Shown here piece by piece: positions 23,707 through 59,489 of a DNA stretch of 64,000 bases (position 1 is the first letter of the stretch; each line of letters opens with the position of its first letter). The stretch lies in assembly GCA_028714495.1 (NCBI GenBank), contig JAQTMH010000004.1, forward strand, positions 128,232 through 192,231, given 5' to 3'. The notes beneath the pieces were generated by a model. The model was not told the DNA's origin, did not search any database, and saw only the letters and a program-made list of their open reading frames with translations. Origin of the DNA: Patescibacteria group bacterium (GTDB lineage: Bacteria; Patescibacteriota; Patescibacteriia; JAHIZJ01). The position numbers and the translations under genes are program-made.

Positions 23707-23826
23707 CCAGCTGGGTTAATAAAGGGGGCCTACGGCGGGTTATTTGCCTATGGCTCCGCTTTCGTTTGGACTGAAAATATTGTTAAGGAGCTCTATGATT
23801 GTTGGTGTGAAGGCAAATAAAAAACG
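23707..23826 (+). repeat. copy 1 of a 118-bp near-identical direct repeat (second copy at 35997..36114)
   Basis: 2 mismatches over about 118 bp. Contains a 10-bp long-range complement TTATTTGCCT…AGGCAAATAA, an SD (aaggag) and ATG of a short ORF (MIVGVKANKK…). More diverged homology extends about 65 bp upstream (ACCCGCCTC…). Confidence 0.9.
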
Positions 23827-23908
23827 AGGGCGGAACCTTGTACCGAGTCTGGTACAGGGTCCACCCTCTTGTATTGTTGAAGGTGCAGGCGAGGTTGGTC
23901 AACCTCGC

Positions 23909-29162: not shown

Positions 29163-29163
29163 T

Positions 29164-31089
29164 ATGGCTAATATCAATTTATCCAAACAAGCCCAACCAG
29201 TTCAGGAACAAGTCGGACCAAAGCCGGCCCTCTCGACCCAAGAAAAAAAAGAAGTTGAGACGGGCGCGATTGAACGCGAGAAGCGGGCAATCGAAGCCGA
29301 GCGGATCTACCGAGAAGGCGTGGTGACGATTCAGGACTTGATTGCCCCGCCGGCCCTCAAGGTAATGCCGAATTATATTGAACTGGGCGGCAAATTTATC
29401 CGGACAATATTTGTTACGACCTATCCGCGCTTTGTCTCGGTTGGCTGGTTTGCTCCGATAGTCAATTTAAATCTAACGCTGGATATCGCGATGTTCTTTT
29501 ACCCGATCAGCTCGGATATCATATTGAAGCAACTTCGGAATAAAGTAGGCGCCCTCGAAGCCCAGATCATGGGTGACGCGGAAAAGGGATCAGCCCGCGA
29601 TCCGATGATTGAAACGGCGCTCCGGGACGTGGAGAAGCTCCGGGACGATTTGACCCAGGGAATGGAAAAATTTTTCCAATTCGCGCTCTACGTGACGATC
29701 TATGCCGATTCGCTGAAAGAATTAAACGAACTTTCGGATCGGATTGAAGGCATGTTTGGTTCGCGACTAGTCTACAGCAAGCGAGTTTATTATCAGGCTG
29801 AACAGGGTTTTAATACCACCTTGCCATTGGCGACTGATCTGCTGAATATTGCTTTCAATATGAACACCTCGCCCTGCGCGTCGTCTTTTCCTTTCATTTC
29901 TTCCGAATTGACCTCTGACAACGGCATTCTCTACGGCATCAATCGGCACAATAACAGCCTGATTCTTTTCGATCGCTTCAGCCTCCAGAATGCCAATTCC
30001 TGCGTTTTTGCCACCTCGGGCGCGGGCAAAAGCTATGCCGTGAAACTGGAAGTTCTGCGCAGCCTGATGCTTGGCACTGACGTCATCATTATTGATCCGG
30101 AAAAAGAATACAAATATCTCTCTGACGCGGTTGGGGGAGCCTACGTTAATATCTATTTAAATTCTGATTCCAAAATAAATCCTTTTGATCTGCCGCGGCC
30201 CGTGGGCGAAGCCGACAAGCCGGCCGACATCATTCGTTCGGCGGTCATAACGCTGAAAGGGCTGATGCGCCTGATGTTGGGAGAATTTACTCATGAGGAA
30301 GATTCATTAGTTGACCGGGCTTTGATTGAAACCTATGCCAAGAAAGACATCACGGCCGACTCCGACCTGACTAAAATTGAGGCGCCTCTGATGTCCGATT
30401 TCGAAGAAGTGCTTTCGGGCATGGAGGGCGGCGATCAGCTGGTCAAACGTTTGAAGAAATATACCGAAGGTACGTTCTCCGGTCTCTTTAATAGCCCCAC
30501 CAATATCGACGTCAAAAACCAGCTGGTCATATTCAGCGTGCGCGACTTGGAAGACGAGCTAAGACCGATCGCCATCTATATTATTGTCAATTACATCTGG
30601 AACATAGTCCGCTCCGAGCTGAAAAAGAGAATTATGGTAATTGATGAAGCCTGGTGGCTGATGCAAAACGAAGATTCAGCCAAATTTATCTATGCCCTGG
30701 TCAAACGTTGCCGCAAATACTACCTCGGTGTTACTACCATCACCCAGGACGTAAATGATTTCTTGCGCTCGCCCTACGGTCAGGCGATTGTCACCAATTC
30801 CTCGCTTCAGCTGCTGCTTAAGCAATCACCGGCCGGGGTTGATATCTTGGCCAAAACATTTCTTCTGACCCAGGGAGAGAAATATCTGCTGCTGGAGTGC
30901 GGTGTCGGCGAGGGGATTTTCTTTGCCGGGGCTCGACACGCCGCCATCAAAGTAGTCGCTTCCTATACCGAGGACCAGGTGATAACTTCCGATCCAAAAC
31001 AGCTCTTGGAGATCGAGGCGGCGAAAAAGGAATTTGAACAATCAATGGCCGATGATGAAGGGGTTGAATCAGCCGCGCCCAGGTCCTAA
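29164..31089 (+). CDS. VirB4-like type IV secretion ATPase (split VirB4, part 2)
   Basis: Walker A ATSGAGKSY, Walker B MVIDEAWWLM, …ITQDVNDF…. Confidence 0.7.
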   Translation: MANINLSKQAQPVQEQVGPKPALSTQEKKEVETGAIEREKRAIEAERIYREGVVTIQDLIAPPALKVMPNYIELGGKFIRTIFVTTYPRFVSVGWFAPIVNLNLTLDIAMFFYPISSDIILKQLRNKVGALEAQIMGDAEKGSARDPMIETALRDVEKLRDDLTQGMEKFFQFALYVTIYADSLKELNELSDRIEGMFGSRLVYSKRVYYQAEQGFNTTLPLATDLLNIAFNMNTSPCASSFPFISSELTSDNGILYGINRHNNSLILFDRFSLQNANSCVFATSGAGKSYAVKLEVLRSLMLGTDVIIIDPEKEYKYLSDAVGGAYVNIYLNSDSKINPFDLPRPVGEADKPADIIRSAVITLKGLMRLMLGEFTHEEDSLVDRALIETYAKKDITADSDLTKIEAPLMSDFEEVLSGMEGGDQLVKRLKKYTEGTFSGLFNSPTNIDVKNQLVIFSVRDLEDELRPIAIYIIVNYIWNIVRSELKKRIMVIDEAWWLMQNEDSAKFIYALVKRCRKYYLGVTTITQDVNDFLRSPYGQAIVTNSSLQLLLKQSPAGVDILAKTFLLTQGEKYLLLECGVGEGIFFAGARHAAIKVVASYTEDQVITSDPKQLLEIEAAKKEFEQSMADDEGVESAAPRS

Positions 31090-31121
31090 GCCTGGATAAT
31101 TTGACTTATTAAAATAAATTT

Positions 31122-31760
31122 ATGAAAGGTTTCCGGATTATCATCATCATTATAGGAGTCTTAGTGGTTTTGTCGGCGATAATTTTGGTAGTGACGCGTT
31201 TCACGGGTTCATCAAAGAATGACAACGCCAACACCGGGAACACAAACAACACCCAGATTATCAACAACACCGCTCCGGCTAACAATAATACGAACCAAAC
31301 CGCTAATTCGAATAATGCTAACACCAACTCAGGTAACAATACCAACAAAAATACCAATACCGCGCCAGTTACTCCAACTGGCGAGGCAAGCTTAAAAGCC
31401 ACGGCCCGGAGTTTCGCCGAGCGCTTCGGCACCTTTTCAAATTACAGCGATTACGAAAACGTCGAGCACTTACTGCCCTACATGACCCAGCGGATGAAGA
31501 AATGGGCGAATAAGTACATCGAAGAACAAAGAGCCAAACCGCCCTATACCGGCATTTACAGCGGAACCACGACCAAGGCCTTATCGGTAAAAACCTCAAG
31601 TTTTGAGGAAGCTGCCGGTACGGCCGAATTTCTAGTCAGCACCCAGCGCAAGGAATCAACCGGCACGACTTCCAACGCTCGCATATATTATCAAGACATC
31701 AAGATAAAGTTTGTTAAAGAGCAGTCAGTTTGGAAAGTTGATGAGGCCTGGTGGCAATAA
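31122..31760 (+). CDS. membrane-anchored hypothetical protein (N-terminal TM, Asn/Thr-rich linker, globular C-domain)
   Basis: ORF architecture only. Confidence 0.4.
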   Translation: MKGFRIIIIIIGVLVVLSAIILVVTRFTGSSKNDNANTGNTNNTQIINNTAPANNNTNQTANSNNANTNSGNNTNKNTNTAPVTPTGEASLKATARSFAERFGTFSNYSDYENVEHLLPYMTQRMKKWANKYIEEQRAKPPYTGIYSGTTTKALSVKTSSFEEAAGTAEFLVSTQRKESTGTTSNARIYYQDIKIKFVKEQSVWKVDEAWWQ

Positions 31761-31769
31761 AATCCTGAC

Positions 31770-32501
31770 ATGGCAAGCCCTTCAGATAATTTAAACAACC
31801 AACCAGGAAGGCCAAGGGGATCTTCAAAAGACATTAAAAACCGGACTGGAAAATCGCGTTCTCCAGGAGAAAATATCAATCGGCAAAAAGGCCGGTTGCC
31901 TGAAAACCAGATGGGTTTGGACAGGCAAAGGGGCAGGGATTTTCGAACCCGAGAACGACAGGCGGAATCCATGGGTTCTCCATTAAGCCCGGCAGGTATT
32001 CAAGGCCGGCTAGGTAACGTCTTGAATCGTTCAGTCGATGATTTTGATAGTCGTCGGACCATCGGTGGCCTTCGCGGGCAGAGCACGGCGGGGATGAAGG
32101 ACGATATCACAAGTCCGGCTGAGCAGAGAGCGGCCAGCCGGCGGATGGGCAGCGCTAAGGCTCAAGCGGCTCAAGCCGCGGTTCAAGCCATAGCCGAAGG
32201 TGAGGGGAAAGGACAGGTGGCTGAAGCGGCCGCGGCGGCAGCGCTCGAAGCTAAAAAAATACAGCAATTTCGATTAATTTTGTTGGCTATCAGAGGCGGC
32301 AGCGCGATTACAGTCGTCGGCATCATTATCACGATTCTTATCTGGGGCATTCAGCTGATCGTCGGCCATATCATGGGCCATGAAAAATGGAAGATGTCGA
32401 AGTGGGAACTGCCCTTCGCGATAATCATCTGGGTATTAGTATTTTTTGCTGTCGTGGTGCAGTTTAGTATTTGGGCATTGTACCTGAAGATTATTCAATA
32501 A
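31770..32501 (+). CDS. hypothetical membrane protein with Arg-rich disordered N-terminus and C-terminal TM helices
   Basis: ORF architecture only. Confidence 0.4.
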   Translation: MASPSDNLNNQPGRPRGSSKDIKNRTGKSRSPGENINRQKGRLPENQMGLDRQRGRDFRTRERQAESMGSPLSPAGIQGRLGNVLNRSVDDFDSRRTIGGLRGQSTAGMKDDITSPAEQRAASRRMGSAKAQAAQAAVQAIAEGEGKGQVAEAAAAAALEAKKIQQFRLILLAIRGGSAITVVGIIITILIWGIQLIVGHIMGHEKWKMSKWELPFAIIIWVLVFFAVVVQFSIWALYLKIIQ

Positions 32502-32553
32502 TACTGTCGGACTGATACTGTTTTAAATTCGCTATATTAGCTATAATGCTTAT

Positions 32554-33693
32554 ATGAGAAAAAATCCAAAAACCAAGGCTTTTATTCTGGGTTTAGGTCT
32601 GGCGATTGTCTTGACCGGTTTGATTATTATTCCGGCGGCCAGCGTCCCTGGTCTGGTCAGCCAGGCTCGGGCTGCCAGTGATTCAAGCGTGCCCCCGCCC
32701 TGCAATCAGTGTGGTGAAGGTCAAATTTGTTTAAATGTCTGGATTAACACTTGGTGTGTAACAAATCTGGCGGAGTATATATCAATATTTTATCGATACT
32801 TTATTGGGATAATCGGAATATTCGCGGTCGCCATGATAATGTTCGGAGGATTCAAATGGATTACCGCCAGCGGTAATTCTGAAAAGATCAACCAGGCCAA
32901 GGATAATATCACCTCAGCCATTATCGGCGTAGTTATCGCGTTGTTTTCTTACGTCCTGCTTCAGACCATTAATCCGATGATCACTTCGTTAAAGAGTGAC
33001 ATATCCGGTATCACCGGGATAGAAGGCGCCTATTCGCAAATTTGCCAGAATCTGTATGGAGCTGGCTGGCAGGCCAAGGTTGGCAAAGGGGCTGATTTTA
33101 ACGCAGAATGCGGCGATGAGTTGGATATAATAGACGCTGCGGGAAACCCTACGGGCGTCAAGTGCTATGGTGGACATTGCGCAGAGGGTCAAATATGCGG
33201 CTTCTCGGTAATGAGTGGTTATAAATGTGGTACTCCAAAAAAATTATGCGAAGATACCGATAAAACTAAATGCCGACAGACTGATTCGATAATCAAGGCG
33301 TCGCAAGCAGAGGGCGCCATTGATTATGGCTGCGCGAAAAGAATTGATAATACTTGGTCAATAACCGGCCTTTATGCCGCTGAAGGCGCTGACGAATGCG
33401 TTTACAACCCGGTAATAAAGAAAGAACAATGGGAGGCGGCCGGGTACGAAAGAGTAAATTGTGGAGAATCGGAAGCAAAAAATAGATGTTGGTATATGCC
33501 GGGCAATGCAAAAATGCCAGCCTGTAAAACTGTTGGCGTTAATATCCCTCTTATAGGTTATTTACAAATTGACGCTAGAATGCGTTGTTGTACTGATTCT
33601 GAACGGCCAATAGTTGGAGCCAACACCGTTTGCGTCAGGAAGGTGGGCCTGCCGCCGAACGATCCTGAATCATATACTCTCTGGGAGCCGTAA
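32554..33693 (+). CDS. Cys-rich TrbC/VirB2-like pilin-like membrane protein with large Cys-rich C-terminal domain
   Basis: Signal peptide, PPCNQCGEGQICLN, helix 1, loop …SGNSEKINQAKDN…, helix 2, then ~230-aa domain with about 20 Cys. Confidence 0.4.
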   Translation: MRKNPKTKAFILGLGLAIVLTGLIIIPAASVPGLVSQARAASDSSVPPPCNQCGEGQICLNVWINTWCVTNLAEYISIFYRYFIGIIGIFAVAMIMFGGFKWITASGNSEKINQAKDNITSAIIGVVIALFSYVLLQTINPMITSLKSDISGITGIEGAYSQICQNLYGAGWQAKVGKGADFNAECGDELDIIDAAGNPTGVKCYGGHCAEGQICGFSVMSGYKCGTPKKLCEDTDKTKCRQTDSIIKASQAEGAIDYGCAKRIDNTWSITGLYAAEGADECVYNPVIKKEQWEAAGYERVNCGESEAKNRCWYMPGNAKMPACKTVGVNIPLIGYLQIDARMRCCTDSERPIVGANTVCVRKVGLPPNDPESYTLWEP

Positions 33694-33722
33694 TATTTAG
33701 TAGACTTTTCGGAATAATTTAA

Positions 33723-34964
33723 ATGACTCTTTCACCAAGGACCAAAAAAATAATTTTCATTAGCCTGGTTGTTATCGTGACTGGCTTGTTAGCCTACGGT
33801 ATTTATTTTCTATTTTTCCAGCAGCTCATAACGCCGGAAAATGAAAATAAAAACGCTAACGGAAATGTGAATGGAGGAACATTGCCGAATACGAACGTCA
33901 ATCGTTTAGTCAACCGAAATACCAACGTGAACACCAACGGCGCGACGAACTTACCCCAAATATCTGATATTGCCAATGGCGGATTGACCAAGGTGACTGA
34001 CGTGGCTGATGTGGCCGTGGAAGCTGGGGCGCCGACGAGCGACCGGACCGGCTACGTCTATTACGATTCGGCGACGCATAAGTTTTACCAGATATTAGCC
34101 AATGGCGAGCGTGTCGAGCTTTCAGATAAAGAGTTTTATGACGTAGCCAATGTGGCCTGGTCGCCGGACCGCAATCAGGCGATTATGGCCTATCCTGACG
34201 GCAGTAAAATATATTACAATTTTAAAAGCGGCCAGACCGTCACCTTGCCGAAGGAGTTAAATGACGTGCATTTTTCCGAGGCCGGAGATAAAATTGCCTA
34301 CGAATTTCTGGGCGAGGAGGAAAACGAGCGCTGGCTGGCCATAGCCAACCCTGACGGCAGCGGACAGCAAATACTCGAACCGCTCGGCGATCGCGACAAC
34401 CGCGTCGAAGTCAATATGTCTCCGGATGCCCAGGTGGTGGGTATTTATCGCGAGGGGATCGGCGTCGATCAGGAGGAGATTTATTTCCTGGGCCAGCACG
34501 GCGAGAATTTTAAATCAATGGTGGTTGACGGGGCTGGTTTTGAAGGCCAGTGGACGCCCCAAGGCGATAAGCTGCTTTACAGCGTTTATAATTCAGAAAG
34601 TGATTATAAGCCGGAATTGTACATTGTAGACGCCCGGGGAGAGAATATTGGTTTAAATAAGCTAGATCTGGATTTGAACACCTGGTCTGACAAATGCGCC
34701 TTTTCCGGATCGAGTCTTTACTGCGCCGTGCCAAATGATTTGCCGACTGGCGCCGGATTGGACCCGAGCTTAGCCAGCCAAACGACTGACAGTTTTTACC
34801 AAGTAAATCTAGAAACAGGCCAGAAGTCCTTATTGGCCATACCCTATTCGGGCTCCAGTCAGATCGGCTATTCGGCCGAAGGCGTCTATCTCTCGCTTGA
34901 CGGCAGTTACCTGTACTTTCGCAATGCTCTCACGGGCAAGCTTGATAAGATACAGATAAAATAA
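33723..34964 (+). CDS. membrane-anchored beta-propeller (TolB-like) protein
   Basis: N-terminal TM, Asn-rich linker, repeated …Y(Y/V)…S(P)DG… blades. Confidence 0.45.
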   Translation: MTLSPRTKKIIFISLVVIVTGLLAYGIYFLFFQQLITPENENKNANGNVNGGTLPNTNVNRLVNRNTNVNTNGATNLPQISDIANGGLTKVTDVADVAVEAGAPTSDRTGYVYYDSATHKFYQILANGERVELSDKEFYDVANVAWSPDRNQAIMAYPDGSKIYYNFKSGQTVTLPKELNDVHFSEAGDKIAYEFLGEEENERWLAIANPDGSGQQILEPLGDRDNRVEVNMSPDAQVVGIYREGIGVDQEEIYFLGQHGENFKSMVVDGAGFEGQWTPQGDKLLYSVYNSESDYKPELYIVDARGENIGLNKLDLDLNTWSDKCAFSGSSLYCAVPNDLPTGAGLDPSLASQTTDSFYQVNLETGQKSLLAIPYSGSSQIGYSAEGVYLSLDGSYLYFRNALTGKLDKIQIK

Positions 34965-34973
34965 TCAAAAAAT

Positions 34974-35714
34974 ATGGCAGAAAAACCCATTCAAACGCAC
35001 ACCAAGGTTAAAACAGCGGTAGTTGTCACCATCGGGGTTATCGCCTTTTTAGTAATCGCCTTGCTAATCGTAATATTTAGGAACGTGATCGCTGAAGGAT
35101 TATTCAGCCGGGTAAAAGTTACCTATGAAGGAATGTATAATCCATTCGTAATCTCAGGCAATGCCCTGGTGACTGCCGCGGAAAAAGAAATCTCCGGCCA
35201 GCCGGAACTCCGGCCGACTGATCCGACGCAAGGTTCAAGCAGTCCGAAAATAAAGATTTTTGAATTCGGGAGTTTTAATAGCGGTTACTCGGCTGCCGCC
35301 CAAAGCGTAGTGGAACAAATAGTAACGGATTATGGTGGCGAAGTTCAGATTATCTGGAAAGATTATTTTGACCAAACCGACTCAATCGCCAGGCTCGGCG
35401 CCGAAGCAGCACGGTGTGGCCAACAGCAAAATAAATTTTGGGAAATGCAAAAAGTGATTTATCAAACCCAGGGGGGATTTACCAGGGACAAGCTGATTGA
35501 GTTGGCGAAGGGTTTAAATCTGAACCTAGACAATTTTAATAGTTGCCTGGATAAAAAAGAAGTTGACGGCGTAATAGACCAAAATATCAGCGAAGCGATC
35601 CAGCTACACTTGCCTGGCGCTCCGATATTCTTCGTGGATGATAAAGTGCTGAAAGGCGTAGTGACTTACCGGGAGTTTGAAGCGCTGGTGAAACAGGAAT
35701 TGAAGGGTAAATAG
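34974..35714 (+). CDS. DsbA-like thioredoxin-fold protein lacking the catalytic CXXC motif
   Basis: Aligns with the bona fide DsbA at 40184..40909 (…KFWEM…), but CPAC is replaced by NSGY (FEFGSFNSGYSAA). Confidence 0.55.
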   Translation: MAEKPIQTHTKVKTAVVVTIGVIAFLVIALLIVIFRNVIAEGLFSRVKVTYEGMYNPFVISGNALVTAAEKEISGQPELRPTDPTQGSSSPKIKIFEFGSFNSGYSAAAQSVVEQIVTDYGGEVQIIWKDYFDQTDSIARLGAEAARCGQQQNKFWEMQKVIYQTQGGFTRDKLIELAKGLNLNLDNFNSCLDKKEVDGVIDQNISEAIQLHLPGAPIFFVDDKVLKGVVTYREFEALVKQELKGK

Positions 35715-35996
35715 CTGCCAGAGAATTCAAAATGTAAAATGCAAAATTTAGGTTGCCGCCGTAGGCGGATACCAACATTTTTAATTTTGAGTTTCTTCCC
35801 TGACCCAACGGATTTCGTATACTTTTATCCGAGGATCTTTGCCGGTGGTATACAGCGATACCCGCCCAGCAGTCATGCCGGACTTGATCCGGCATCTCCA
35901 TTATCAACCCGAGGTGAATAATTATATAGACCATACCCGCCTCTGGTTGGTACTTAATCAGCCTTACCTATTTTCATTATCCATCTAGCTTTTTCC

Positions 35997-36114
35997 AGCT
36001 AGGTTAATAAAGGGGGCCTACGGCGGGTTATTTGCCTATGGCTCCGCTTTCGTTTGGCCTGAAAATATTGTTAAGGAGCTCTATGATTGTTGGTGTGAAG
36101 GCAAATAAAAAAAG
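35997..36114 (+). repeat. copy 2 of the 118-bp direct repeat
   Basis: See 23707..23826. Confidence 0.9.
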
Positions 36115-36230
36115 ACGGCAGGTGTCGTCTCGACATGGGTATCATGGGTGCCAAAGCCGGGCTTTGACTTGGGGGATTCTAATCCCGATACCTGTCATAT
36201 GAGACGATAACTGCCGTTATGTGCCGGAAG

Positions 36231-36629
36231 CTACGCTAGAGCTGGCACAGCCGCCTCGGTCGCCATGGACGCACGCGCGTCAGGTACGGGGCTGACCCGG
36301 AGGTCAAAGGGCTCGGCACCGCAGGCGCGGATGAGCTCTTCATCACCACCGAGAAAGACTACCCGTCTGGCGGGATTGACCATGTGTCCGGCCCGATTCC
36401 TGTACGGCTGCGTAGAGGCGAGCCAGTTGGTCAGACTGAGGTTACCCTCGGACGCGACCACGCCGCACACCTTGCCGGGTCGGACTTCGTTGGAGCAGAC
36501 CTCCAGGTCTCTGATTGTGTTCGGACTGCCTGCCACAGCGAATCTGATACCGGGTGTGTGCGTGTGACTGCCATCTTTGCCATTAACGTGATTGAAACAG
36601 CACATGTGGATCTCCCGATCTTTGTACAA
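36231..36629 (-). pseudogene. decayed M20D amidohydrolase paralog fragment in a GC-rich segment
   Basis: …HMCCFNHVNG…SHTHT… and …RRVVFLGGDEELIRACGAEPFD… parallel …MHACGHDFHT… and …RLLFTQAEE…ELIRARGADGL… of the intact M20D gene. Several overlapping ORFs on both strands, none convincing. Confidence 0.3.
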
Positions 36630-37008
36630 CCCTTCCTGGGTTGTGGGTTTAGAAGAGGACCTCCTTACCTCCGTGTGGTTGTAATAGCCCTAGTCAGGTG
36701 AACTTATTCTTCATCCAACCCCTCCTTCCCCTCTTCGAAGTTCTGATCCTGGCAGTGCCTGGCACTGCTCCAGCCTGGTTCCTCCTCGGGAAAAAGTGGG
36801 GGAGAGCGCGGCAGTTGACAAATGGCGTTGGCTTGGATACGTGGAGATCGGGAGAAGACCACGATACCCATTGCCCAGCGCCTTACTTGTTCATACGTGT
36901 CCGGCTCTCCCATAAACCTGTTTATCTCTAGAAGAGAGGTACTCGATAACCCAGAATACAAAGAGCGTATTTTTATAATACGCTAATTTGCTAATATGTC
37001 AAGCTGGG

Positions 37009-39090
37009 TTATTCCCAGTGGATTGAGTCTTTAAACTCCTTCATTTTTTGGCGAATGTGGGGATATTTAGATAATTCAAAGTCTTGCTCTAGGATATTTT
37101 TGGCTAAAGTTTGAGCTTTTTTAATAATGGGGAAGTCGGTAAGCTTGGCAATTCTGAATTCTGGGAAACCCGACTGTTTCAGGCCATAAAGCTCGCCCGG
37201 GCCGCGCATTTCCAGGTCTTTCTCTGCCAATTCAAAGCCGTTTTGGGAGGTGAGAACAGCCTGGAGGCGGTTTCGGCCCGCTTCACTTTCAGTTTCGGTG
37301 AGGAGGAAGCAGTAGGATTGGTAGAGCCCGCGGCCGACCCGACCGCGAAATTGATGGAGCTGAGCCAGGCCGAAGCGTTCAGCCGCCTCGATCAGCATAA
37401 CGGTGGCATTAGGTATATCAATCCCGACTTCGACTACCGAGGTCGAGACGAGCAGTTGGATGTGGTTTGCCAGAAACTCGCGCATAACTTTTTCCCGGCT
37501 TTCGGGCCTTAAGCGGCCGTGAAGCAAGCCAATTTTGAATTCAGGAAAAATCTTGGTCGACAGGCGTTCGTATTCCTCCCTGACCGATTTAACGCCCAAT
37601 TTGTCGGACGGATCGATCAGCGGACAGATAACGAAAACTTGTCGGCCGCTTTGGATTTCCTCCGAGATGAAATCGTAGGTGGCTTTCCGTTCGTGCGGCA
37701 ATACGATTTTTGTTGCGATCTTCTGCCGGCCTTTGGGCAGCTCGTCAATAATCGAAATATCCAAATCGCCGTAAAAACCCAGGGCGAGCGTTCGAGGTAT
37801 GGGTGTAGCCGTGAGACTTAAAAAATGGGGTGAGAGTTCGGAATGCGCCCGGGATTTATTAGTCAGCTGCTTTCTCTGGTCTACGCCGAAACGGTGCTGT
37901 TCGTCGACGATAGCCAGTCCCAGGTTTTTGAAGACAACATGCTCCTGAAGTATGGCCTGGGTGCCGATGACCAGCTGAGCATTTCCGTTTGCGATTTTAT
38001 GGTTAAGGGTGGTCTTGGAAACAGCTTTTTTCGGTCGGCTAATCCATTTCTGGGTTCGGGTCAAGAGACAAACGGTGATTTTTTGTTTCTGAAAAAGTTT
38101 GGTAAAGGTTTCGAAGTGCTGCTGGGCGAGGATCTCCGTTGGCGCCAGCATAACTGATTGCCAGCCCCGATCAGCCGCGTTTAAAATTGCCAAGCTGACC
38201 ACCACGGTCTTGCCTGAACCGACATCACCTTCCAGTAGCCGGTTCATTGGCCGGCGCTGTTCCATGTCTTTCAGTATTTCCCAGGCTGAGCGGCGCTGGG
38301 CGTTTGTCAATTTATATGGCAGGGCTTCGACAAAACGTTTGGTCTTTTCTTGATTAAAAGGGATGGCTGGCGCCGGCGTGTGTTCGAGCAGGCGGCGATT
38401 TTGGAGAGTGTATATTTGGATCGGAAAGAGCTCGTCGAACTTCAAGCGTTCCACGGCTTTTTTGAGCCAGGCCTCATTCCTGGGAAAGTGAATTTCCTGA
38501 AGCGCCAGGGGTAGTTCTAATAGATCGACTTCTTTTTTTAGCTGATACGGCAAATAATCAACAGTTCTTCGAGCCAGGGGCTTTGACAACTGGGTTAAGA
38601 ATCGCAGCTGTCTCTGCGTCAATCTGCTGGTAGTTGGATATACGGGCACCAGACGGCCAGTATGGATTTGCGGTCCGCTCAGTTTTTCATATGACGGGCT
38701 GGTGAAGTGAAGTCCGTATTTATCCATTTCGAGCTTGCCTGAAACGACAATTTTGTCTCCCGGAACAAAGGTCTTAGCCAAGTAAGGCTGGTTAAACCAG
38801 ATGATTTTAACTGAACCCGTCTGGTCGCTGACGATCGCCTCGGTGATATACAGGCGGCGGCGGAAACTACGGCGGTTTTGGATGGCGTCAATCTTGCCTT
38901 TGATGGTGACTCGGATGCCAGAGGTAAGTTTGTCTATAGTCGTGATATTAGAAAAATCCTCATACCGCGAAGGGAAATGATAGAGGATGTCTTTGGCATG
39001 TTTTAGGCCGAGATTTTTGAGGCGCTTAGCCACAGTTTGGCCGACCGAGTAGAGTTTCTCAACCGGCGTGTCGAATTGTATAAGTTCCAT
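37009..39090 (-). CDS. recG: ATP-dependent DNA helicase RecG
   Basis: Wedge domain N-terminus, helicase motifs GDVGSGKT, DEQHRFGV, …QLHQFRGRVGRG…. Confidence 0.9.
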   Translation of the reverse strand: MELIQFDTPVEKLYSVGQTVAKRLKNLGLKHAKDILYHFPSRYEDFSNITTIDKLTSGIRVTIKGKIDAIQNRRSFRRRLYITEAIVSDQTGSVKIIWFNQPYLAKTFVPGDKIVVSGKLEMDKYGLHFTSPSYEKLSGPQIHTGRLVPVYPTTSRLTQRQLRFLTQLSKPLARRTVDYLPYQLKKEVDLLELPLALQEIHFPRNEAWLKKAVERLKFDELFPIQIYTLQNRRLLEHTPAPAIPFNQEKTKRFVEALPYKLTNAQRRSAWEILKDMEQRRPMNRLLEGDVGSGKTVVVSLAILNAADRGWQSVMLAPTEILAQQHFETFTKLFQKQKITVCLLTRTQKWISRPKKAVSKTTLNHKIANGNAQLVIGTQAILQEHVVFKNLGLAIVDEQHRFGVDQRKQLTNKSRAHSELSPHFLSLTATPIPRTLALGFYGDLDISIIDELPKGRQKIATKIVLPHERKATYDFISEEIQSGRQVFVICPLIDPSDKLGVKSVREEYERLSTKIFPEFKIGLLHGRLRPESREKVMREFLANHIQLLVSTSVVEVGIDIPNATVMLIEAAERFGLAQLHQFRGRVGRGLYQSYCFLLTETESEAGRNRLQAVLTSQNGFELAEKDLEMRGPGELYGLKQSGFPEFRIAKLTDFPIIKKAQTLAKNILEQDFELSKYPHIRQKMKEFKDSIHWE

Positions 39091-39129
39091 ACCTTCATCG
39101 TATCAAATTACCGTGAAAAGAGAAACAAC

Positions 39130-39158
39130 AAAAAAACGGGCTAAGCAGCCGTTTTTCT
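39130..39158. terminator. bidirectional terminator between the tRNA-Arg locus and recG
   Basis: A-run, bulged hairpin ACGGGCTAAGCAGCCGT, then T-run. Confidence 0.5.
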
Positions 39159-39166
39159 TTACGAAG

Positions 39167-39360
39167 TTGTGCGCCTGGTCCCACCACTAGCTCGCGTTGC
39201 TCGTCGTCCGGGACAAGCTCTGCGACTGTCATTTCTCTCCTTTGTGCGCCCGGCAGCCCCGCACCATTCCGCTTCGCTCCAGGTATGGGGTCTTCGAGAG
39301 TTGAATCCCGGATCTCCTCGCATTGCTTGTCGTCCGGGACAAGCTCTGCGACCTAGGTAT
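39167..39360 (-). repeat. tRNA-Arg-derived debris: two partial copies of the tRNA-Arg 3' end, a degenerate T-arm/acceptor fragment and two copies of a 37-nt hairpin repeat
   Basis: TTGTGCGCCTGGTC (39167-80), TTGTGCGCCCGGCAG (39242-56) vs tRNA end TTGGTGCGCCCGGCAGG. Hairpin repeat …CTTGTCGTCCGGGACAAGCTCTGCGAC at 39190-39226 and 39316-39352. Confidence 0.6.
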
Positions 39361-39369
39361 TCCTCAACT

Positions 39370-39446
39370 TGGTGCGCCCGGCAGGAGTTGAACCTGCGGC
39401 CTTGAGATCCGCAATCTCACGCTCTATCCAGCTGAGCTACGGGCGC
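39370..39446 (-). tRNA. tRNA-Arg (anticodon GCG as read)
   Basis: GCGCCCGTAGCTCAGCTGGATAGAGCGTGAGATTGCGGATCTCAAGGCCGCAGGTTCAACTCCTGCCGGGCGCACCA. Canonical cloverleaf, CCA encoded. Confidence 0.8.
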
Positions 39447-39481
39447 ACCAAGTTGATGAGTAATGCATTATGGTTTAATAG

Positions 39482-39547
39482 TCGGGGTTTAATTGAAGAG
39501 TTTATCCCCGCGAAAGCGGGGACTCTATCCAGCTGAGCTATGAGGGC
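39482..39547 (-). pseudogene. truncated tRNA-like 5' half (acceptor + D-arm) fused to a GC hairpin
   Basis: GCCCTCATAGCTCAGCTGGATAGAG (D-arm identical to tRNA-Arg) then CCCCGC-TTTC-GCGGGG. No T-arm or 3' acceptor. Confidence 0.4.
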
Positions 39548-39613
39548 TTGGTAAGACGGACTCTTGTGTTATTTATGAGGGTTATATTGATACTGCGCTG
39601 GGGCTACAGGCAC

Positions 39614-40105
39614 TCATAGTTTGTAATCACGACTTAGAACTTCAGAGAGAGATTCGTCCTCCTTAGTCGGATCTTCTTTGAGGTAGTTGAGCAGGATGTC
39701 GCGGACTTTCACGGGATTAGCGTTTTCCAGTTGAATGACCAAATCGGGCCGTAAGTTTGATTTGAAATTAAGGTAGAGATATTTGCTCTCCGGTGGTTTG
39801 TATATTAACCAGAATTTGGCGATGCTGTCAAAAGAATAAAACCTATTTTCAACCTCAAGGCCATCTTCGGTGATAGTTAATTTCAAAATTAGAGGCTTTC
39901 GTCTGGCGGTGATCAGAATTACCGCCCAGATGATGATAATCATCATCAGGAAGAGAAAGTTAGCTGTCATGACGGCATAGAGGGCGCTGAGAGCGCCGAT
40001 CAGAAGAAATACAGTGTACCAAACTTTTCCGCGCCTGTGCTCTTGAAATTCGGGAAACTTCCAGGAGATAAGCTTTTTACCGCGGTCGGGTGTATTTTCG
40101 GGCAT
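39614..40105 (-). CDS. hypothetical membrane protein
   Basis: Two adjacent TM helices then soluble domain. Confidence 0.4.
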   Translation of the reverse strand: MPENTPDRGKKLISWKFPEFQEHRRGKVWYTVFLLIGALSALYAVMTANFLFLMMIIIIWAVILITARRKPLILKLTITEDGLEVENRFYSFDSIAKFWLIYKPPESKYLYLNFKSNLRPDLVIQLENANPVKVRDILLNYLKEDPTKEDESLSEVLSRDYKL

Positions 40106-40183
40106 ATTAAATACGCTAATAATTAGCGCTTACATCTTAACACTTTTTCAGCAAAAACAACAGAGATTGCTGATTTATTTTGC

Positions 40184-40909
40184 TTATTTTAAAGCCTCGT
40201 CGAGAGCCTGTTTTAATTCGGAATAACTCTGGAACGGATTGAGAAATTTTCCGTTAAGATAGTAGGTCGGTGTGCCACGGATGGGAATTTTCTGGCCGTT
40301 TTTATAAGCCTCGTCAACGATTTTCTTTATCTCATCAGAGGCGTAGTCGGTTTGGAATTTTTGACTGTCCAGACCGAGCGATTTGGCGTAACTTATAAAC
40401 TTACTTGATGGATCGTTTTCGCTTGACCAGTCCGATTGTTTTTCAAAAAGAAAATCGTGCATTTCCCAGAATTTGTCCTGTTTATTGGCGGCTTCGGCGG
40501 CTCGGGCAGCCGGCTCGGCATTTGGATGGATATTTTTCAAAGGGAAATGACGAAAGACAAAAGCCACCTTGTCGCCGTATTCCTCCTGAGCTTTTTTGAT
40601 CAGAAAGTAGCGGGCAGAGCAAGCCGGGCACTGGAAGTCGCTGTATTCGATCAAAATTGCTCGAGCGTTTCGCGCGCCTTTGACGTTATCAGAATCAGCG
40701 ATTGTCTGAACTGATGGTTTTTGACCGTCTGTTTTTTTTGTGGCAAAAAGAATACCGGTGATTCCCAGACAGACGGCTAAAACCAAGCCACCCCAAAGAA
40801 GCATCTTTTTTGGCTTTCTTTGCGCCGTTAATTGAGTTCCTTTCCTATCTTGTCGTTCGATTTCCCGGCGTTCCCGTCTTGTGATTGGTTGTTCGCTTGG
40901 TTGGTTCAT
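40184..40909 (-). CDS. DsbA-family thiol:disulfide oxidoreductase (membrane-anchored)
   Basis: N-terminal TM, YSDFQCPACSARY catalytic CPAC, …KFWEMHD…. Confidence 0.7.
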   Translation of the reverse strand: MNQPSEQPITRRERREIERQDRKGTQLTAQRKPKKMLLWGGLVLAVCLGITGILFATKKTDGQKPSVQTIADSDNVKGARNARAILIEYSDFQCPACSARYFLIKKAQEEYGDKVAFVFRHFPLKNIHPNAEPAARAAEAANKQDKFWEMHDFLFEKQSDWSSENDPSSKFISYAKSLGLDSQKFQTDYASDEIKKIVDEAYKNGQKIPIRGTPTYYLNGKFLNPFQSYSELKQALDEALK

Positions 40910-41041
40910 ATTAAAAAAAGTAATAATCTAATATAGCGCAAATTATTCTTTTTGTCAAGACTAATAAGTTAAGTAAGAGTTTTTAACGATTATTCAAGAT
41001 CCTTAGATTTTTTCTATAAGTATGTGGGATCCCGCACAGAG

Positions 41042-41128
41042 CGGAGGGGGTGAGATTCGAACTCACGGTACCTTTGCAGGTACAACGGTTTTCAAGACCG
41101 TCCCCTTAAACCACTCAGGCACCCCTCC
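41042..41128 (-). tRNA. tRNA-Ser (anticodon TGA)
   Basis: GGAGGGGTGCCTGAGTGGTTTAAGGGGACGGTCTTGAAAACCGT…GTGAGTTCGAATCTCACCCCCTCCG. Long variable arm. CCA not encoded. Confidence 0.8.
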
Positions 41129-41237
41129 GCCATGTGCGAAATCGCACTTCGCCAATTAGATATTCAAGCGTTTCCCAATCAAGAGACTTTTCAAATTAAT
41201 TTTGGCTACCAGCCACACGTAGCCTTGGCGAAGTGTG

Positions 41238-41260
41238 GCGGAGAGTGCAGGATTCGGGTC
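41238..41260 (-). repeat. 23-nt duplicate of the tRNA-Ser(GCT) 3' end, with a degenerate tRNA-Ser-like pseudo-copy between it and the real gene
   Basis: gtggcggagagtgcaggattcg occurs at 41238-41260 and in the tRNA at 41387-41409. Intervening GC-rich 126 nt resembles a collapsed tRNA-Ser (GGCGGAGTTGCCGGCGGC…CAGGACCCGAATCCTGCACTCTCCGCCACA). Confidence 0.6.
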
Positions 41261-41386
41261 CTGGGCAGCGGCGGACTTGCCGCCGGCAACTCCGCCGGCG
41301 TCTCGCGGCGCCCTTCGGGCTTGCTCACTGCTGCCCTTCGAATCCTGTCTTTGCTTTTTAACTTGCTTCCGCTTCGCTCCAGCATG

Positions 41387-41476
41387 TGGCGGAGAGTGCA
41401 GGATTCGAACCTGCGAGGCCCCCGAAGGGGCCAAGGTTTAGCAAACCTTTGCCTTAAGCCACTCGGCCAACTCTCC
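41387..41476 (-). tRNA. tRNA-Ser (anticodon GCT)
   Basis: GGAGAGTTGGCCGAGTGGCTTAAGGCAAAGGTTTGCTAAACCTT…GCAGGTTCGAATCCTGCACTCTCCGCCA. CCA encoded. Confidence 0.85.
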
Positions 41477-41479
41477 TTG

Positions 41480-41725
41480 TTATTGGCTGTTAAATAGCCA
41501 TTTAATTCTGTCACGGCCCTTACCTGATTTTAAGAATTTTTCCTCTCTCGCTGCATCATCTTTGTTATAGAATACCTCGTAATATATTAATACCCAAGGC
41601 CCATTCTGTTTTGTGAAGATAGACTTACCCGACTGATGTTCGATTAGTCTGCGTTTCAGGTTGTTGGTAAGACCTTTATAAAGCTTACTATTGGATTTAC
41701 TTTTTAGAATATATACATAATACAT
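41480..41725 (-). CDS. GIY-YIG (URI-domain) nuclease-family small protein
   Basis: MYYVYILKSKSNSKLYKGLTNNLKRRLIEHQSG… typical of the COG2827/YhbQ-like family. Stop codon 4 nt from the tRNA-Ser 5' end. The ORF-track start is 9 nt upstream (GTG). Confidence 0.75.
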   Translation of the reverse strand: MYYVYILKSKSNSKLYKGLTNNLKRRLIEHQSGKSIFTKQNGPWVLIYYEVFYNKDDAAREEKFLKSGKGRDRIKWLFNSQ

Positions 41726-41730
41726 AATAA

Positions 41731-41778
41731 CCACTCTCGGCCCAAGGCCGATCCGCCTCGGGCGGAGGCCAACTCTCC
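41731..41778 (-). repeat. tRNA-Ser(GCT) 5' fragment (acceptor to D-loop) interrupted by a small GC hairpin, immediately upstream of the GIY-YIG start
   Basis: GGAGAGTTGGCC[TCCGCCCGAGGCGGATCGGCCTTGGGCC]GAGAGTGGTT vs tRNA GGAGAGTTGGCCGAGTGGCTT. Confidence 0.6.
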
Positions 41779-41790
41779 GTGCAATATTTA

Positions 41791-42519
41791 TTATTTTTGT
41801 GAACGGGCGAGAACCGCACCCCAGACTTCTTTTGCGCCGGCTAGTTTGAGCACTTTAGCGCATTCATTCAGAGTCGCTGTGGTCGTGGCCACATCATCAA
41901 TAATTATAACCTTTTGACCAGATAAGACAACCCCGCGTTTCAATTCAAAAGCCGATTTGAGGTTGATCAGCCTCTCGGCACGCGAGAGCCGGGCTTGCGG
42001 CCGGGTGTAAGCTTTACGGATGAGTATATCAGCTTTAATTGGCCAGTCAAGGACCGACGCGATTGATACGGCCAGACACTTAGCTTGATTAAAACCTCGC
42101 TCGTTTTTTCTTCGCCAGTGGAGCGGTACTGGCATTATGATGGGCTTTATGTGTTGAATTTGTCCAGTAAATTCCGATTTGATTTTGCGGGCCAGCATTT
42201 TTCCCATAATTTCACCCAGGTCAGTAACAAATTGATATTTTAAGGTATGAACAATTTTTTGGATTAACGGGATCTGATAATCAGTGAGTACGATTAAACC
42301 TGACAGCGGGGTTTGAGTTCGGCAAGCTGAACAGACGTGATTATCAAATTGGGGTATTCGGCAGATTGGACATTCTGGCTGAAGCGTGGTTTCTAGTCGC
42401 TTAGAGCACTGGGGACACAACCAGGTATCATACCGGCCGCATCCACCCAGGCATTTGACAGGGAAGATTAGATTAAAGACCGCTGGCCAGATTTTTTCAA
42501 TATATTTTTTCATAAACAA
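41791..42519 (-). CDS. comFC: ComF-family competence protein (phosphoribosyltransferase-fold, N-terminal Zn-finger)
   Basis: CxxC…CxxC N-terminus. PRTase motif QKVIIIDDVATTTATL. Confidence 0.7.
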   Translation of the reverse strand: MFMKKYIEKIWPAVFNLIFPVKCLGGCGRYDTWLCPQCSKRLETTLQPECPICRIPQFDNHVCSACRTQTPLSGLIVLTDYQIPLIQKIVHTLKYQFVTDLGEIMGKMLARKIKSEFTGQIQHIKPIIMPVPLHWRRKNERGFNQAKCLAVSIASVLDWPIKADILIRKAYTRPQARLSRAERLINLKSAFELKRGVVLSGQKVIIIDDVATTTATLNECAKVLKLAGAKEVWGAVLARSQK

Positions 42520-58770: not shown

Positions 58771-58790
58771 GGAGATGTGTGGACATCCGA

Positions 58791-59469: not shown

Positions 59470-59489
59470 TATTACGCGATATATCTTCA

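Follow-up and report, generated by a model that had tools for sequence, protein, structure and literature searches.

Among the landmarks of a bacterial genome, tRNA genes are usually taken to be the most stable, and for islands they count as passive landing sites. Integrases that act on them duplicate only one end of the tRNA upon integration, and the T loop is a classical crossover site. The locus described here resembles the targets of tRNA-targeting integrative elements in that the insertion lies in a tRNA gene, the insert keeps the tRNA working, the displaced piece is found as a direct repeat, and the breakpoints often fall in the anticodon or T loop. However, here a whole tRNA is brought in, both the 5' and the 3' pieces of the old gene stay, and the blocks are 100-500 nt long with inverted-repeat flanks and no recombinase gene. 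In fungal mitochondria, as at Allomyces atp6, homing-endonuclease genes supply a substitute for part of the gene they target, and the part they displace remains as a pseudogene. This system shares with ours the "kill and replace" outcome with a leftover fragment and the small GC-rich double hairpins in or near RNA genes; it differs in that, here, bacterial tRNA genes are hit and replaced in full, and successive rounds produce nesting. Double-hairpin elements are mentioned in PMC4478555.

Three further systems deserve comparison. Phage T4 SegB is a free-standing GIY-YIG homing endonuclease that recognises a motif of the T-psi-C stem-loop of tRNA genes (PMC2330249) and drives the co-inheritance of itself and neighbouring tRNA genes (PMC2330249; PMC13096335). 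The likeness is a GIY-YIG nuclease gene among tRNA genes, but SegB belongs to a phage and has a DNA-binding region, whereas the protein considered below is a chromosomal 81-aa catalytic domain encoded between a tRNA stub and a full tRNA. The disrupted tRNA genes of archaea include multiple or mobile bulge-helix-bulge introns and split and permuted tRNAs (PMC4390854, PMC4033280); there too flanking helices join the halves and the inserts seem mobile, but the interrupted archaeal gene is functional and spliced, whereas here the interrupted gene is dead and the insert carries the functional tRNA. Finally, rRNA genes of CPR bacteria carry insertion sequences and introns, some with homing endonucleases (PMC11270868), which are likewise mobile inserts in stable-RNA genes of the same phylum; those are removed or tolerated, whereas a tRNA gene invaded in the present case falls out of use and another takes its place. 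No account of such nested tRNA replacement was found in the literature searched. We propose that the window (the whole 64-kb stretch of Patescibacteria DNA analysed here) holds a nested set of tRNA-Arg(GCG) genes produced by recurrent insertion of cognate-tRNA cassettes, likely by a break-and-copy mechanism with a candidate GIY-YIG nuclease, and we give this reading as a whole a probability of roughly 0.6.

The tRNA-Arg(GCG) gene and the dead shells around it

All coordinates are plus-strand numbers of the window, and the features of the tRNA-Arg locus are read on the minus strand. The live gene, with CCA encoded, lies at 39446-39370; ARAGORN assigns it the anticodon GCG (Arg), it scores 70.8 bits against the RF00005 threshold of 29, placing it in the tRNA family, and its position upstream of recG is syntenic in relatives. 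The features that the earlier note listed at this locus prove to be real and non-random. The gene is preceded by an AT-rich leader (39504-39447), in which a promoter consensus scan called no site. An extended acceptor stem is made up of the final 13 nt of the leader (39459-39447), as 5' strand, and of ACCAAGTTGAGGA (39373-39361), which lies in the trailer and overlaps the CCA end. The pairing lengthens the acceptor stem by 13 bp within an inverted repeat of 23 nt (I1, 91%), and leader stem, tRNA and trailer stem fold together at -53.3 kcal/mol (z -6.0); this leader/trailer pairing was absent from the earlier note. A terminator-like hairpin with a T7 run (39156-39130; -10.4 kcal/mol, z -2.6) separates the tRNA block from the start of recG (39090); it corresponds to the terminator reported before and was not called by the consensus terminator scan.

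Upstream of the live gene lies the 5' stub of a dead tRNA-Arg gene, GCCCTCATAGCTCAGCTGGATAGAG (39547-39523), comprising positions 1-25, i.e. the acceptor 5' strand, the D stem and loop, and GAG. It is 76 nt from the live gene and identical to it at 22/25 positions, and its GCCCTCA acceptor is of the type found in the live allele of one related locus (L006; compared loci are designated by L numbers). At the junction of the stub and the inserted block stands the GC hairpin TCCCCGCTTTCGCGGGGA (TCCCCGC TTTC GCGGGGA; 39522-39505; -13.4 kcal/mol, z -4.3); the tRNA-like 5' half followed by a CCCCGC/GCGGGG hairpin had been recognised earlier at just this place. In the distant locus L032 a nested tRNA-Lys has this 18-mer, with one loop base different, on its upstream side. 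Still farther out, CCCTCATA (39581-39574) may be the acceptor 5' strand plus TA of another GCCCTCA-type tRNA-Arg. It repeats, in direct orientation, the first letters of the stub at 39547 and is present both in the window and in L001; its assignment as a tRNA-Arg remnant is the weakest part of the parse. It extends the feature, for which a span of 39128-39548 had been given, to 39581.

Downstream of the live gene, the trailer includes copy A of a 36-nt hairpin repeat (39352-39317) and is followed by an internal piece of the dead gene (39316-39298), which consists of the anticodon-stem bit GAGAT, the T-stem 5' strand and the T loop. In this piece CCGGGATTCAACTC aligns locally to tRNA positions 47-62, with the block 53-62 identical at 9/10 positions. 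The segment GGGATTCAACTCTCGAAGACCCCA, formerly described as a degenerate tRNA 3' piece, is instead the 5' strand of the old gene's T arm with its T loop, continuous with a hairpin insert of 41 nt (39297-39257), which sits in the T stem of the dead gene between positions 61 and 62, begins with TCGAAGA and contains the 16-mer CTGGAGCGAAGCGGAA at 39282-39267. L006 carries a homologous insert at the same T-stem site (TCGAAGATCCCGCACC...GGTGCGGGG). Beyond the insert follows the 3' end of the dead gene, CTGCCGGGCGCACAA (copy A, 39256-39242), with the T-stem 3' and acceptor 3' strands and 14/15 identity to the 3' end of the live gene. Local alignment reads shell A as T-stem 5' strand plus T loop, in preference to a combination of anticodon loop and T loop; forced global spliced alignment produces spurious middle blocks for the window, and the trusted blocks are 1-25, 53-62 and 63-77. 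Neither the stub (39523-39547) nor the shells (39167-39316) gave a tRNA match in Rfam even at E up to 5, which marks them as fragments, and shells, hairpins and spacers alike matched nothing in Rfam at permissive thresholds. With a 5' piece of the old gene upstream and 3' pieces downstream, the live gene is nested.

The two partial 3'-end copies recorded in the earlier note, CTGCCGGGCGCACAA and the 12-nt CCAGGCGCACAA (39178-39167), and its paired hairpin repeat (36 nt in our hands) are all present. The repeat hairpins come after the genuine 3' end and after the first of the copies; behind the second copy stands the terminator-like hairpin instead. The second set starts with a decayed copy of the trailer start (39241-39227), continues with hairpin copy B (39226-39191) and ends with a residue of the T-stem insert, CTAGTGGTGGGA, plus CCAGGCGCACAA (39190-39167). 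Unit B is identical to unit A at 78/89 positions and has an internal deletion of about 48 nt (46-51), and BLAST recovers the two as a self-match of 68 nt at 85%. The hairpin copies differ at two positions and fold at -18.7 (copy A, z -4.5) and -15.0 kcal/mol (copy B). By this alignment the paired hairpins and paired 3'-end copies are clearly one [trailer + shell] unit of ~128 nt duplicated in tandem, and not the product of two integrations. Searched for beyond the locus, as had been suggested, the 36-mer proved to have only these two copies in 64 kb (0 expected; 100 shuffles) and none in the 84 other loci, and in BLAST the Arg leader, trailer and shell units of the window likewise matched none of those loci. 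The decayed trailer start at 39241-39227 makes a chance Shine-Dalgarno sequence plus ATG. A small ORF at 39232-39095, with a strong Shine-Dalgarno and the repeat units in frame, was considered as a gene and rejected: 5/5 substitutions relative to L001 are nonsynonymous, and the L001 copy is frameshifted.

Recurrence of nesting in related loci

The arrangement is also present in independent assemblies, namely the L001 MAG and the separate sequencing runs behind L002 and L003, and is therefore not an assembly artefact. Over 20 kb, where L001 shares 97% identity with the window, the only indels of at least 3 nt are a tRNA-Ser(TGA) cassette, the Arg stub and one of 7 nt; the L001 Arg stub is identical to the live gene at 25/25 positions. 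Among more distant recG-syntenic relatives, the tRNA-Arg of L010, L011 and L016 stands bare, 11-14 nt away from recG. L005 has two layers, with a decayed outer gene whose D loop is interrupted by a precise 116-nt block with inverted-repeat ends. L006 has three: its dead middle gene equals the live gene of L005 at 74/77 positions and lies in five pieces parted by four insertions, one of which carries a new live tRNA. Such fossil tRNA layers preserve the order of events. Arg(GCG) genes are independently nested in two further loci, in the D loop in L018 and in the T loop in L070. A metagenome scan with the flanking 163-aa protein gave only two distant, uninformative loci. The earlier suggestion of scars from repeated insertion and recombination at this tRNA holds, and relatives show both simpler and more layered versions.

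Nesting is seen again at many other tRNA genes of Patescibacteria. Among 115 tRNAs, 31/34 same-strand self-fragments are in nested orientation (22 downstream 3' and 9 upstream 5' fragments, against 3 in the opposite arrangement; binomial p about 4e-7, hand arithmetic), and only 4 self-fragments lie on the other strand. Wherever the outer gene has a readable anticodon it matches that of the inner gene (6/6). The pairing of leader and trailer is stronger in nested tRNAs (Mann-Whitney p 0.001), and terminal inverted repeats, a feature of miniature palindromic elements, are seen as CCCGCC...GGCGGG in L005, CCTGCC...GGCAGG in L018, CCCAGCACC...GGTGCTGGG in L001 and L066, and the 13-bp stem in the window. 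The junctions are spread over the D loop, D stem, anticodon loop (34|35 to 37|38), T loop and T stem (61|62), and no target duplication was seen at the precise ones.

Several insertions at or near loop positions, including 37|38, and a flank helix that would bring the outer halves together, recall an arrangement at the RNA level, in which the outer gene would be an intron-containing or split tRNA and the inner block would be cut from the transcript as in archaea. We regard this as very improbable. The outer gene of the window has no anticodon loop and only part of the anticodon stem, that of L001 has no positions 38-55, that of L032 has no position 36, and the outer genes decay in L005. Group I/II intron covariance models in Rfam gave no match over 35700-41900 at E up to 5, the matches there being the tRNAs and chance matches. 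The host is a bacterium, for which no tRNA splicing endonuclease is known.

A wholly local origin, in which the tRNA gene was duplicated in tandem and then underwent deletion and decay with no incoming element, would agree with the clearly tandem units A and B, with the 25/25 Arg stub of L001, with the outer tRNA-Lys of L032, which is 100% identical to the inner one, and, for this one layer, with the common allele type of the inner and outer Arg genes of the window. It is nevertheless a rather improbable account: outer and inner alleles differ in L005, L006, L066 and L001, the outer halves rejoin exactly once the block is removed (L005; the L006 middle gene at 74/77), the inverted-repeat flanks are specific to nested genes, and a foreign allele is present in the 97%-identical strain, so that foreign inner alleles refute the family-wide form of this explanation.

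The nested pieces could also be scars of natural transformation, left by imprecise homology-facilitated illegitimate recombination of taken-up DNA at tRNA genes with no dedicated element or nuclease; once Patescibacteria have diverged, only their tRNA genes would still be alike enough for recombination to anchor in. Natural competence and the retention of homologous-recombination genes have been reported for Patescibacteria (PMC12455944), and both the foreign alleles and the varying junction positions are in keeping with such a process. On the other hand, the native leaders of the clean loci L004 and L010 show none of the leader/trailer complementarity of nested genes, the flanks CCCAGCACCGAG and CTGGTGCTGGG and their junctions recur in L001 and L066 although the outer and inner alleles there are not the same, the inserted pieces, small and symmetric, drag no neighbouring genes along, and a nuclease gene is tightly linked. 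We consider this explanation unlikely, and retain recurrent cassette insertion.

The tRNA-Ser genes and a linked GIY-YIG nuclease gene

Two tRNA-Ser genes on the minus strand of the same window bear on the process. tRNA-Ser(TGA) (41128-41041) is an unoccupied allele, whereas in L001 the gene is split by a palindrome-flanked cassette with a foreign tRNA-Ser(TGA). The two halves of the split gene are identical to the window gene at 38/38 and 19/19 positions, the inserted allele matches the gene it split at only 72/88, and the cassette takes the place of positions 38-55 of the outer gene.

The other, tRNA-Ser(GCT) (41476-41387; ARAGORN, Rfam), is nested. On its 3' side a 130-nt GC-rich spacer, which carries the 16-mer CTGGAGCGAAGCGGAA again (41382-41367), leads to a decayed T arm and a perfect 23/23-nt copy of the 3' end (41256-41234; repeat family D6), the whole spanning 41386-41234. 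On its 5' side lies the stub of a dead tRNA-Ser(GCT), GGAGAGTT...GAGAGTGG (41776-41729), broken by a GC double hairpin. Between this stub and the live gene is an ORF for a stand-alone GIY-YIG nuclease (41734-41480, 81 aa from the ATG at 41725; Pfam PF01541, E 2.1e-16) that ends 3 nt ahead of the tRNA. Stub and double hairpin ahead of a GIY-YIG ORF are also found in Veblenbacteria, Paceibacterota, Buchananbacteria and Azambacteria loci.

The protein belongs to the UPF0213/Slx1-like group, with 621 homologs; its catalytic columns (Tyr, Tyr, Arg, His, Glu) are invariant, and its nearest solved structures are the stand-alone UPF0213 proteins 1ZG2 and 1YWL. It is the catalytic domain alone, with no joined DNA-binding domain. 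In the recG loci 6/7 GIY-YIG ORFs lie at most 126 nt upstream of a tRNA-Ser on the same strand, and in 12 further loci from four other classes 18/18 lie within 94 nt in the same orientation. The protein is 65-85% identical across classes whose RecG proteins are about 45-50% identical. The window, L001, L005 (with two in tandem), L006 and L038 carry the ORF, and L066 and L007 lack it at the same tRNA-Ser(GCT), so that close relatives are polymorphic for its presence. This tight, phylum-wide linkage to tRNA-Ser could also be that of an old conserved operon. No GIY-YIG nuclease gene is found at the Arg locus or in the Arg cassette of the window. Viral contigs yielded no relatives of the protein with a protein query or a 37-sequence profile, and those searched held no free, circular or phage-borne cassette; the protein has no PHROG match, and against NCBIfam it gave only a sub-threshold match to a group I intron endonuclease.

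It is at tRNA-Ser(GCT) that the engine put forward in the earlier note, att duplication of the tRNA 3' end by integrases, has most in its favour. Elements would have integrated at the 3' end by site-specific recombination, duplicated it, and then decayed or been excised, with attL/attR-like repeats left behind, much as in cis-mobilizable remnants of integrative elements. Direct repeats of 3' ends do occur (15 nt, 12 nt and the perfect 23 nt at Ser(GCT)), many of the 3' remnants in relatives are perfect and begin in the T loop (positions 54-58), and similarity reaching 5' of the perfect block at tRNA-Ser(GCT) looks like an attP arm. At the Arg locus, however, a 5' stub lies upstream of the live gene, so that the 5' part is not single-copy, and since an integrase duplicates one end only, the presence of both 5' and 3' pieces means that the att engine fails. 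Further against it stand the precise D-loop insertion with inverted-repeat ends in L005, the lack of any integrase-type Pfam family among genes called in the 10 kb to either side of the MAG copy, the size of the inserts (60-130 nt; no ORF fits between the repeats), the origin of the window's two 3' copies in one tandem duplication, and the L001 cassette, which replaces positions 38-55 and brings a whole foreign tRNA. We judge integrase scars improbable as the general explanation; such a reading is viable only for the perfect T-loop-to-3'-end repeats (23/23 nt) at tRNA-Ser(GCT), which would also suit the core of a site-specific recombinase.

A proposed course of events

Under the cassette-insertion reading, the live tRNA-Arg would have come as the payload of a small block consisting of a leader with an initial GC hairpin, the whole tRNA, and a trailer with the 36-nt hairpin, leader and trailer pairing in what may be a processing-stem-like extension of the acceptor stem. 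The block would have landed in an earlier tRNA-Arg(GCG) gene, within its D arm; the first 25 nt and the 3' part of that gene would persist as the dead shells, and the T stem of the 3' shell would also have gained the hairpin insert of 41 nt. The two 15-nt repeats of the 3' end may afterwards have served for an unequal exchange that doubled the [trailer + shell] unit, the second copy of which would then have lost about 48 nt. Nesting, insert and unit duplication together explain every item of the earlier finding.

More generally, we propose a recurrent "like into like" process in Patescibacteria, in which a tRNA cassette would enter a cognate, probably single-copy, tRNA gene, kill it and take over its function, with later rounds striking the new live copy and giving rise to Russian-doll loci. 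The tRNA gene itself, essential and apparently single-copy, would thus turn over, repeatedly killed and replaced in very small genomes. The most likely engine would be homing-like gene conversion, in which the tRNA gene is broken and the cassette is copied in during repair, and the stand-alone GIY-YIG protein that travels with tRNA-Ser cassettes is the candidate nuclease. Nesting, its recurrence, the import of a foreign allele and the link to the nuclease gene are direct observations, whereas the break-and-copy step and the part played by the nuclease are inferred. That these are undescribed selfish "tRNA replacement cassettes" of Patescibacteria, each a complete tRNA gene in a palindromic processing stem, joined at Ser by a minimal stand-alone GIY-YIG gene, which home into cognate tRNA genes, destroying and substituting for them, is a possibility that we raise tentatively. 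If true, it would be a new route by which selfish DNA turns indispensable, by replacing the gene that it destroys, and tRNA alleles would spread horizontally by it; the widespread, uncharacterised stand-alone GIY-YIG proteins of the UPF0213/Slx1-like group would gain a first concrete and testable role. For annotation it would counsel caution, as tRNA stubs and GC hairpins near tRNAs would be structured remnants and not noise.

The small GC hairpins may be "solo stems", cassettes minus their tRNA, a suggestion drawn from the resemblance between the flanks of L018 and a hairpin in L034. What the Arg locus of the window shares with other loci is confined to short motifs: the 18-nt hairpin (L032) and GGAGCGAAGCGG (L066, L068 and L025), and its occurrence in L025 means that GGAGCGAAGCGG is also found in GC hairpins with no adjoining tRNA.

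Anatomy of the tRNA-Arg(GCG) locus

The live tRNA-Arg(GCG) gene of the window (39446-39370, minus strand), confirmed by ARAGORN and by Rfam at 70.8 bits, lies inside the broken pieces of an older tRNA gene, all read on the minus strand. The 5' side consists of a CCCTCATA stub (39581-39574), a 25-nt stub of a tRNA-Arg (39547-39523), directly after it a 7-bp GC hairpin (39522-39505), and an AT-rich leader (39504-39447). On the 3' side, hairpin A (39352-39317, fold -18.7 kcal/mol) sits inside the trailer and is followed by the old gene's GAGAT, T-stem 5' strand and T loop (39316-39298), a 41-nt hairpin insert at T-stem positions 61/62 (39297-39257) and the old gene's 3' end (39256-39242). A second, shorter series of trailer, hairpin B (-15.0 kcal/mol), insert residue and 3' end occupies 39241-39167, its 3'-end copy lying at 39178-39167, and a terminator-like hairpin with a T run (39156-39130) precedes the recG start at 39090. 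The earlier note had correctly picked out the tRNA, both partial 3'-end copies, the hairpin pair, the tRNA-like 5' half with its GC hairpin, and the terminator. It had placed a hairpin after each partial copy; in fact one hairpin comes after the true 3' end and the other after the first copy. Its "degenerate 3' piece" turns out to be the old gene's T-stem 5' strand and T loop running into the 41-nt insert, and the span it gave is too short, as the feature extends to 39581.

There are exactly two copies of the 36-nt hairpin in the 64 kb, against 0 expected by chance. Units A and B, the two tandem copies of trailer plus 3' shell, align end to end with 78/89 positions identical, unit B lacking 46-51 nt, and are also recovered as a BLAST self-hit; a single tandem duplication thus accounts for both the hairpin pair and the pair of 3' copies, and unequal exchange between the 15-nt 3'-end repeats, 128 nt apart, is the simplest route to it. 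A small ORF opened by unit B was rejected as a gene, with five nonsynonymous changes and a frameshift relative to L001, the sister strain. Leader and trailer of the live tRNA-Arg share 13 bp of complementarity extending past the acceptor stem (fold z -6.0), a pairing that the earlier note had missed. L001, an independent MAG at 97% identity, has the whole layout; the upstream part, from the stub through hairpin and leader to the beginning of the tRNA, is also present in L002 and L003, two other assemblies whose contigs both stop within the tRNA; recurrence in independent assemblies indicates that the layout is no assembly artefact. GCG is the anticodon of the tRNA-Arg beside recG both in the window and in each of the 11 relatives with one found near recG; the usual Arg anticodon in most bacteria is ACG.

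Nesting in relatives and at other tRNA genes

Among the RecG relatives compared, all of them Patescibacteria MAGs, the gene order tRNA-Ser(GCT), tRNA-Ser(TGA), ..., tRNA-Arg(GCG), recG is kept. The simplest loci (L010, L011, L016) have tRNA-Arg 11-14 nt from recG and nothing else there. In the relative L005, a decayed outer tRNA-Arg is broken exactly in the D loop, between AGTTGGA and TAGAGC, by a 116-nt block composed of CCCGCCCGACTCGCCTGTT, the live tRNA-Arg and GACGAGTCTGGCGAGGCGGG, whose ends are inverted repeats. The live gene of L005 is present in L006 as five pieces (74/77 identical) with four insertions between them, located in the D loop, behind GGATA, within the anticodon (34/35) and in the T stem. 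A new live tRNA-Arg lies in the second of these insertions; its acceptor, GCCCTCA, is that of the 5' stub in the window. The T-stem inserts of the window and L006 are homologous and at the same position. Successive layers are thereby seen across one lineage. Two independent cases of a nested tRNA-Arg(GCG), both flanked by inverted repeats, are L018 (in the D loop) and L070 (in the T loop). Comparison with related genomes, as the earlier note had suggested, thus yielded both simpler and layered relatives. The note's reading of the locus as integrase att scars still fits the simple perfect repeats from T loop to 3' end, but it is contradicted by the 5' stub, the nesting, the tiny inserts and the lack of a nearby recombinase, the genes called up to 10 kb on either side in the MAG copy including no integrase-type Pfam family.

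The neighbouring tRNA-Ser(GCT) of the window (41234-41776) is likewise nested on the minus strand. Its 5' stub, which a GC double hairpin interrupts, occupies 41776-41729, and an 81-aa GIY-YIG ORF (41734-41480, PF01541) lies between that stub and the live tRNA (41476-41387). Downstream come 130 nt of GC-rich spacer and then a decayed T arm that includes a perfect copy, 23 nt long, of the gene's 3' end (41256-41234). The tRNA-Ser(TGA) gene is a strain-level polymorphism, intact in the window (41041-41128) and split in L001 (8894-9066). The split gene matches the window at positions 1-38 (38/38) and over the last 19 nt (19/19), and its insert is a palindrome-flanked cassette reading CCCAGCACCGAG GT, a different tRNA-Ser(TGA) allele, CTGGTGCTGGG; the incoming allele and the gene it replaced agree at just 72/88 positions. 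Over 20.4 kb the two strains are 97.1-97.5% identical, and apart from this cassette, the region of the Arg stub and a single 7-nt indel they differ by no indel of 3 nt or more. A foreign allele has been imported between near-identical strains, and the relative L066 shows the same flanks and junctions as L001 with other outer and inner alleles. Local duplication of the tRNA gene explains part of the pattern, namely units A and B and possibly the inner layer of the window, but leaves the foreign inner alleles unexplained.

When 115 tRNAs from 73 loci and the window were each locally aligned to their own 600-nt flanks, same-strand matches comprised a 3' piece downstream in 22 cases, a 5' piece upstream in nine and the opposite arrangement in three, with four matches of any arrangement on the opposite strand. 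A clean example is the tRNA-Lys(CTT) of L032: both outer pieces (1-35 and 37-74) match the inner gene at 100%, and the 72-nt leader pairs with the 49-nt trailer in a long stem. Outer and inner anticodons agree in 6/6 readable cases, and leader/trailer pairing is stronger in nested tRNAs (p 0.001) and absent at clean loci. Like is nested into like, with precise junctions and inverted-repeat flanks. Since essential parts are missing from the outer genes, a functional, intron-like arrangement can be excluded. In a single genome, L034, one GC-rich element of ~130 nt stands directly before the displaced 3' end of each of two different tRNA-Pro genes (cgg, tgg).

The GIY-YIG protein and a proposed mechanism

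The GIY-YIG ORF encodes the catalytic domain alone. Its closest counterparts, 1ZG2 and 1YWL, are stand-alone UPF0213 proteins and belong to the bacterial Slx1-like group, which has no known function (PMC1564403). The 621 homologs of the ORF, from many Patescibacteria classes, are 65-85% identical with invariant catalytic columns, compared with ~45-50% for RecG across those classes. At the recG loci, 6/7 GIY-YIG ORFs are immediately upstream of tRNA-Ser, as are all 18 (by 3-94 nt) at 12 further loci from Veblenbacteria, Paceibacterota, Buchananbacteria and Azambacteria, most with a tRNA-Ser 5' stub or GC double hairpin in front. The nuclease gene is thus conserved in tight linkage to tRNA-Ser, and the module of stub, ORF and tRNA-Ser is kept across several Patescibacteria classes; among close relatives the ORF is patchy, absent from L066 and L007 and doubled in L005. 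A search for the family in viral contigs found none.

The nesting pattern is strong and widespread, and from it we infer the following mechanism. A resident tRNA gene would be broken, and repair would copy in a cassette with a complete tRNA; an insertion would survive only if it supplied a replacement, the tRNA being essential and apparently single-copy. The new live copy would be the next target, hence the nesting. The leader/trailer stem may render the tRNA excisable from any host transcript, like an rRNA processing stem. A candidate for making the break is the GIY-YIG protein, by analogy with T4 SegB, a GIY-YIG homing endonuclease whose recognition motif is the T-psi-C stem-loop of tRNA genes (PMC2330249). 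The weak points of this break-and-copy proposal are that the Arg cassette has no nuclease gene, that the 81-aa protein has no DNA-binding domain and that the junction sites are diverse. Imprecise replacement driven by transformation is a plausible alternative, these organisms being reported as competent (PMC12455944), but would leave the conserved palindromic flanks and the nuclease linkage unexplained.

Integrative elements share the logic of inserting into a tRNA gene and then restoring it, and T4 SegB shares a nuclease gene placed among tRNA genes. Mitochondrial homing endonuclease genes "kill and replace", leaving a fragment over, which is the same logic, and interrupted tRNA genes are known in archaea. 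The present case is set apart by its payload, a complete tRNA, by palindromic cassette flanks, by the cognate gene as target, by repeated layers, by a nuclease reduced to a minimal stand-alone GIY-YIG protein and by its host, a bacterium of the candidate phyla radiation (Patescibacteria). A full-text literature search found no published description of such tRNA cassettes.

Shared hairpins and other repeats

The 16-mer CTGGAGCGAAGCGGAA (core GGAGCGAAGCGG) occurs in the window at 39267-39282 and 41367-41382 and also in L066, L068 and L025, in GC-rich hairpins near tRNAs of distant lineages and, in L025, away from any tRNA; the GCGAAGC inside it is a very stable DNA mini-hairpin. The 18-nt GC hairpin TCCCCGCNTTCGCGGGGA (39505-39522) differs by one loop base from a copy in L032 (5878-5895), a Parcubacteria MAG with RecG just 43% identical, where it lies upstream of the nested tRNA-Lys; this match suggests that the hairpin may be a small, widely shared element.

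Between convergent genes, 35715-37009 is a 1.3-kb GC-rich stretch (about 54%) with no gene called in the MAG copy, no Rfam match and a 132-aa ORF without a Pfam match. It is conserved in the sister strain L001 only (96.7%) and may be what is left of a decayed element, or else an unknown RNA. A 125-nt repeat (35995-36119 and 23707-23831, same strand, 96.8% identical) carries AAGGAG ahead of a short ORF (MIVGVKANKK...). The window further holds a 759-nt repeat pair (58785-59541 and 60179-60929, 94.6%), a 324-nt tandem pair (1734-2056 and 2067-2389, 81%) and a perfect 32-nt tandem (18508-18566). Just past recG, at about 29100-35000 (L001 15135-20492), gene calls place a cluster of T4SS_pilin and DUF87/TraG-type ATPase genes.
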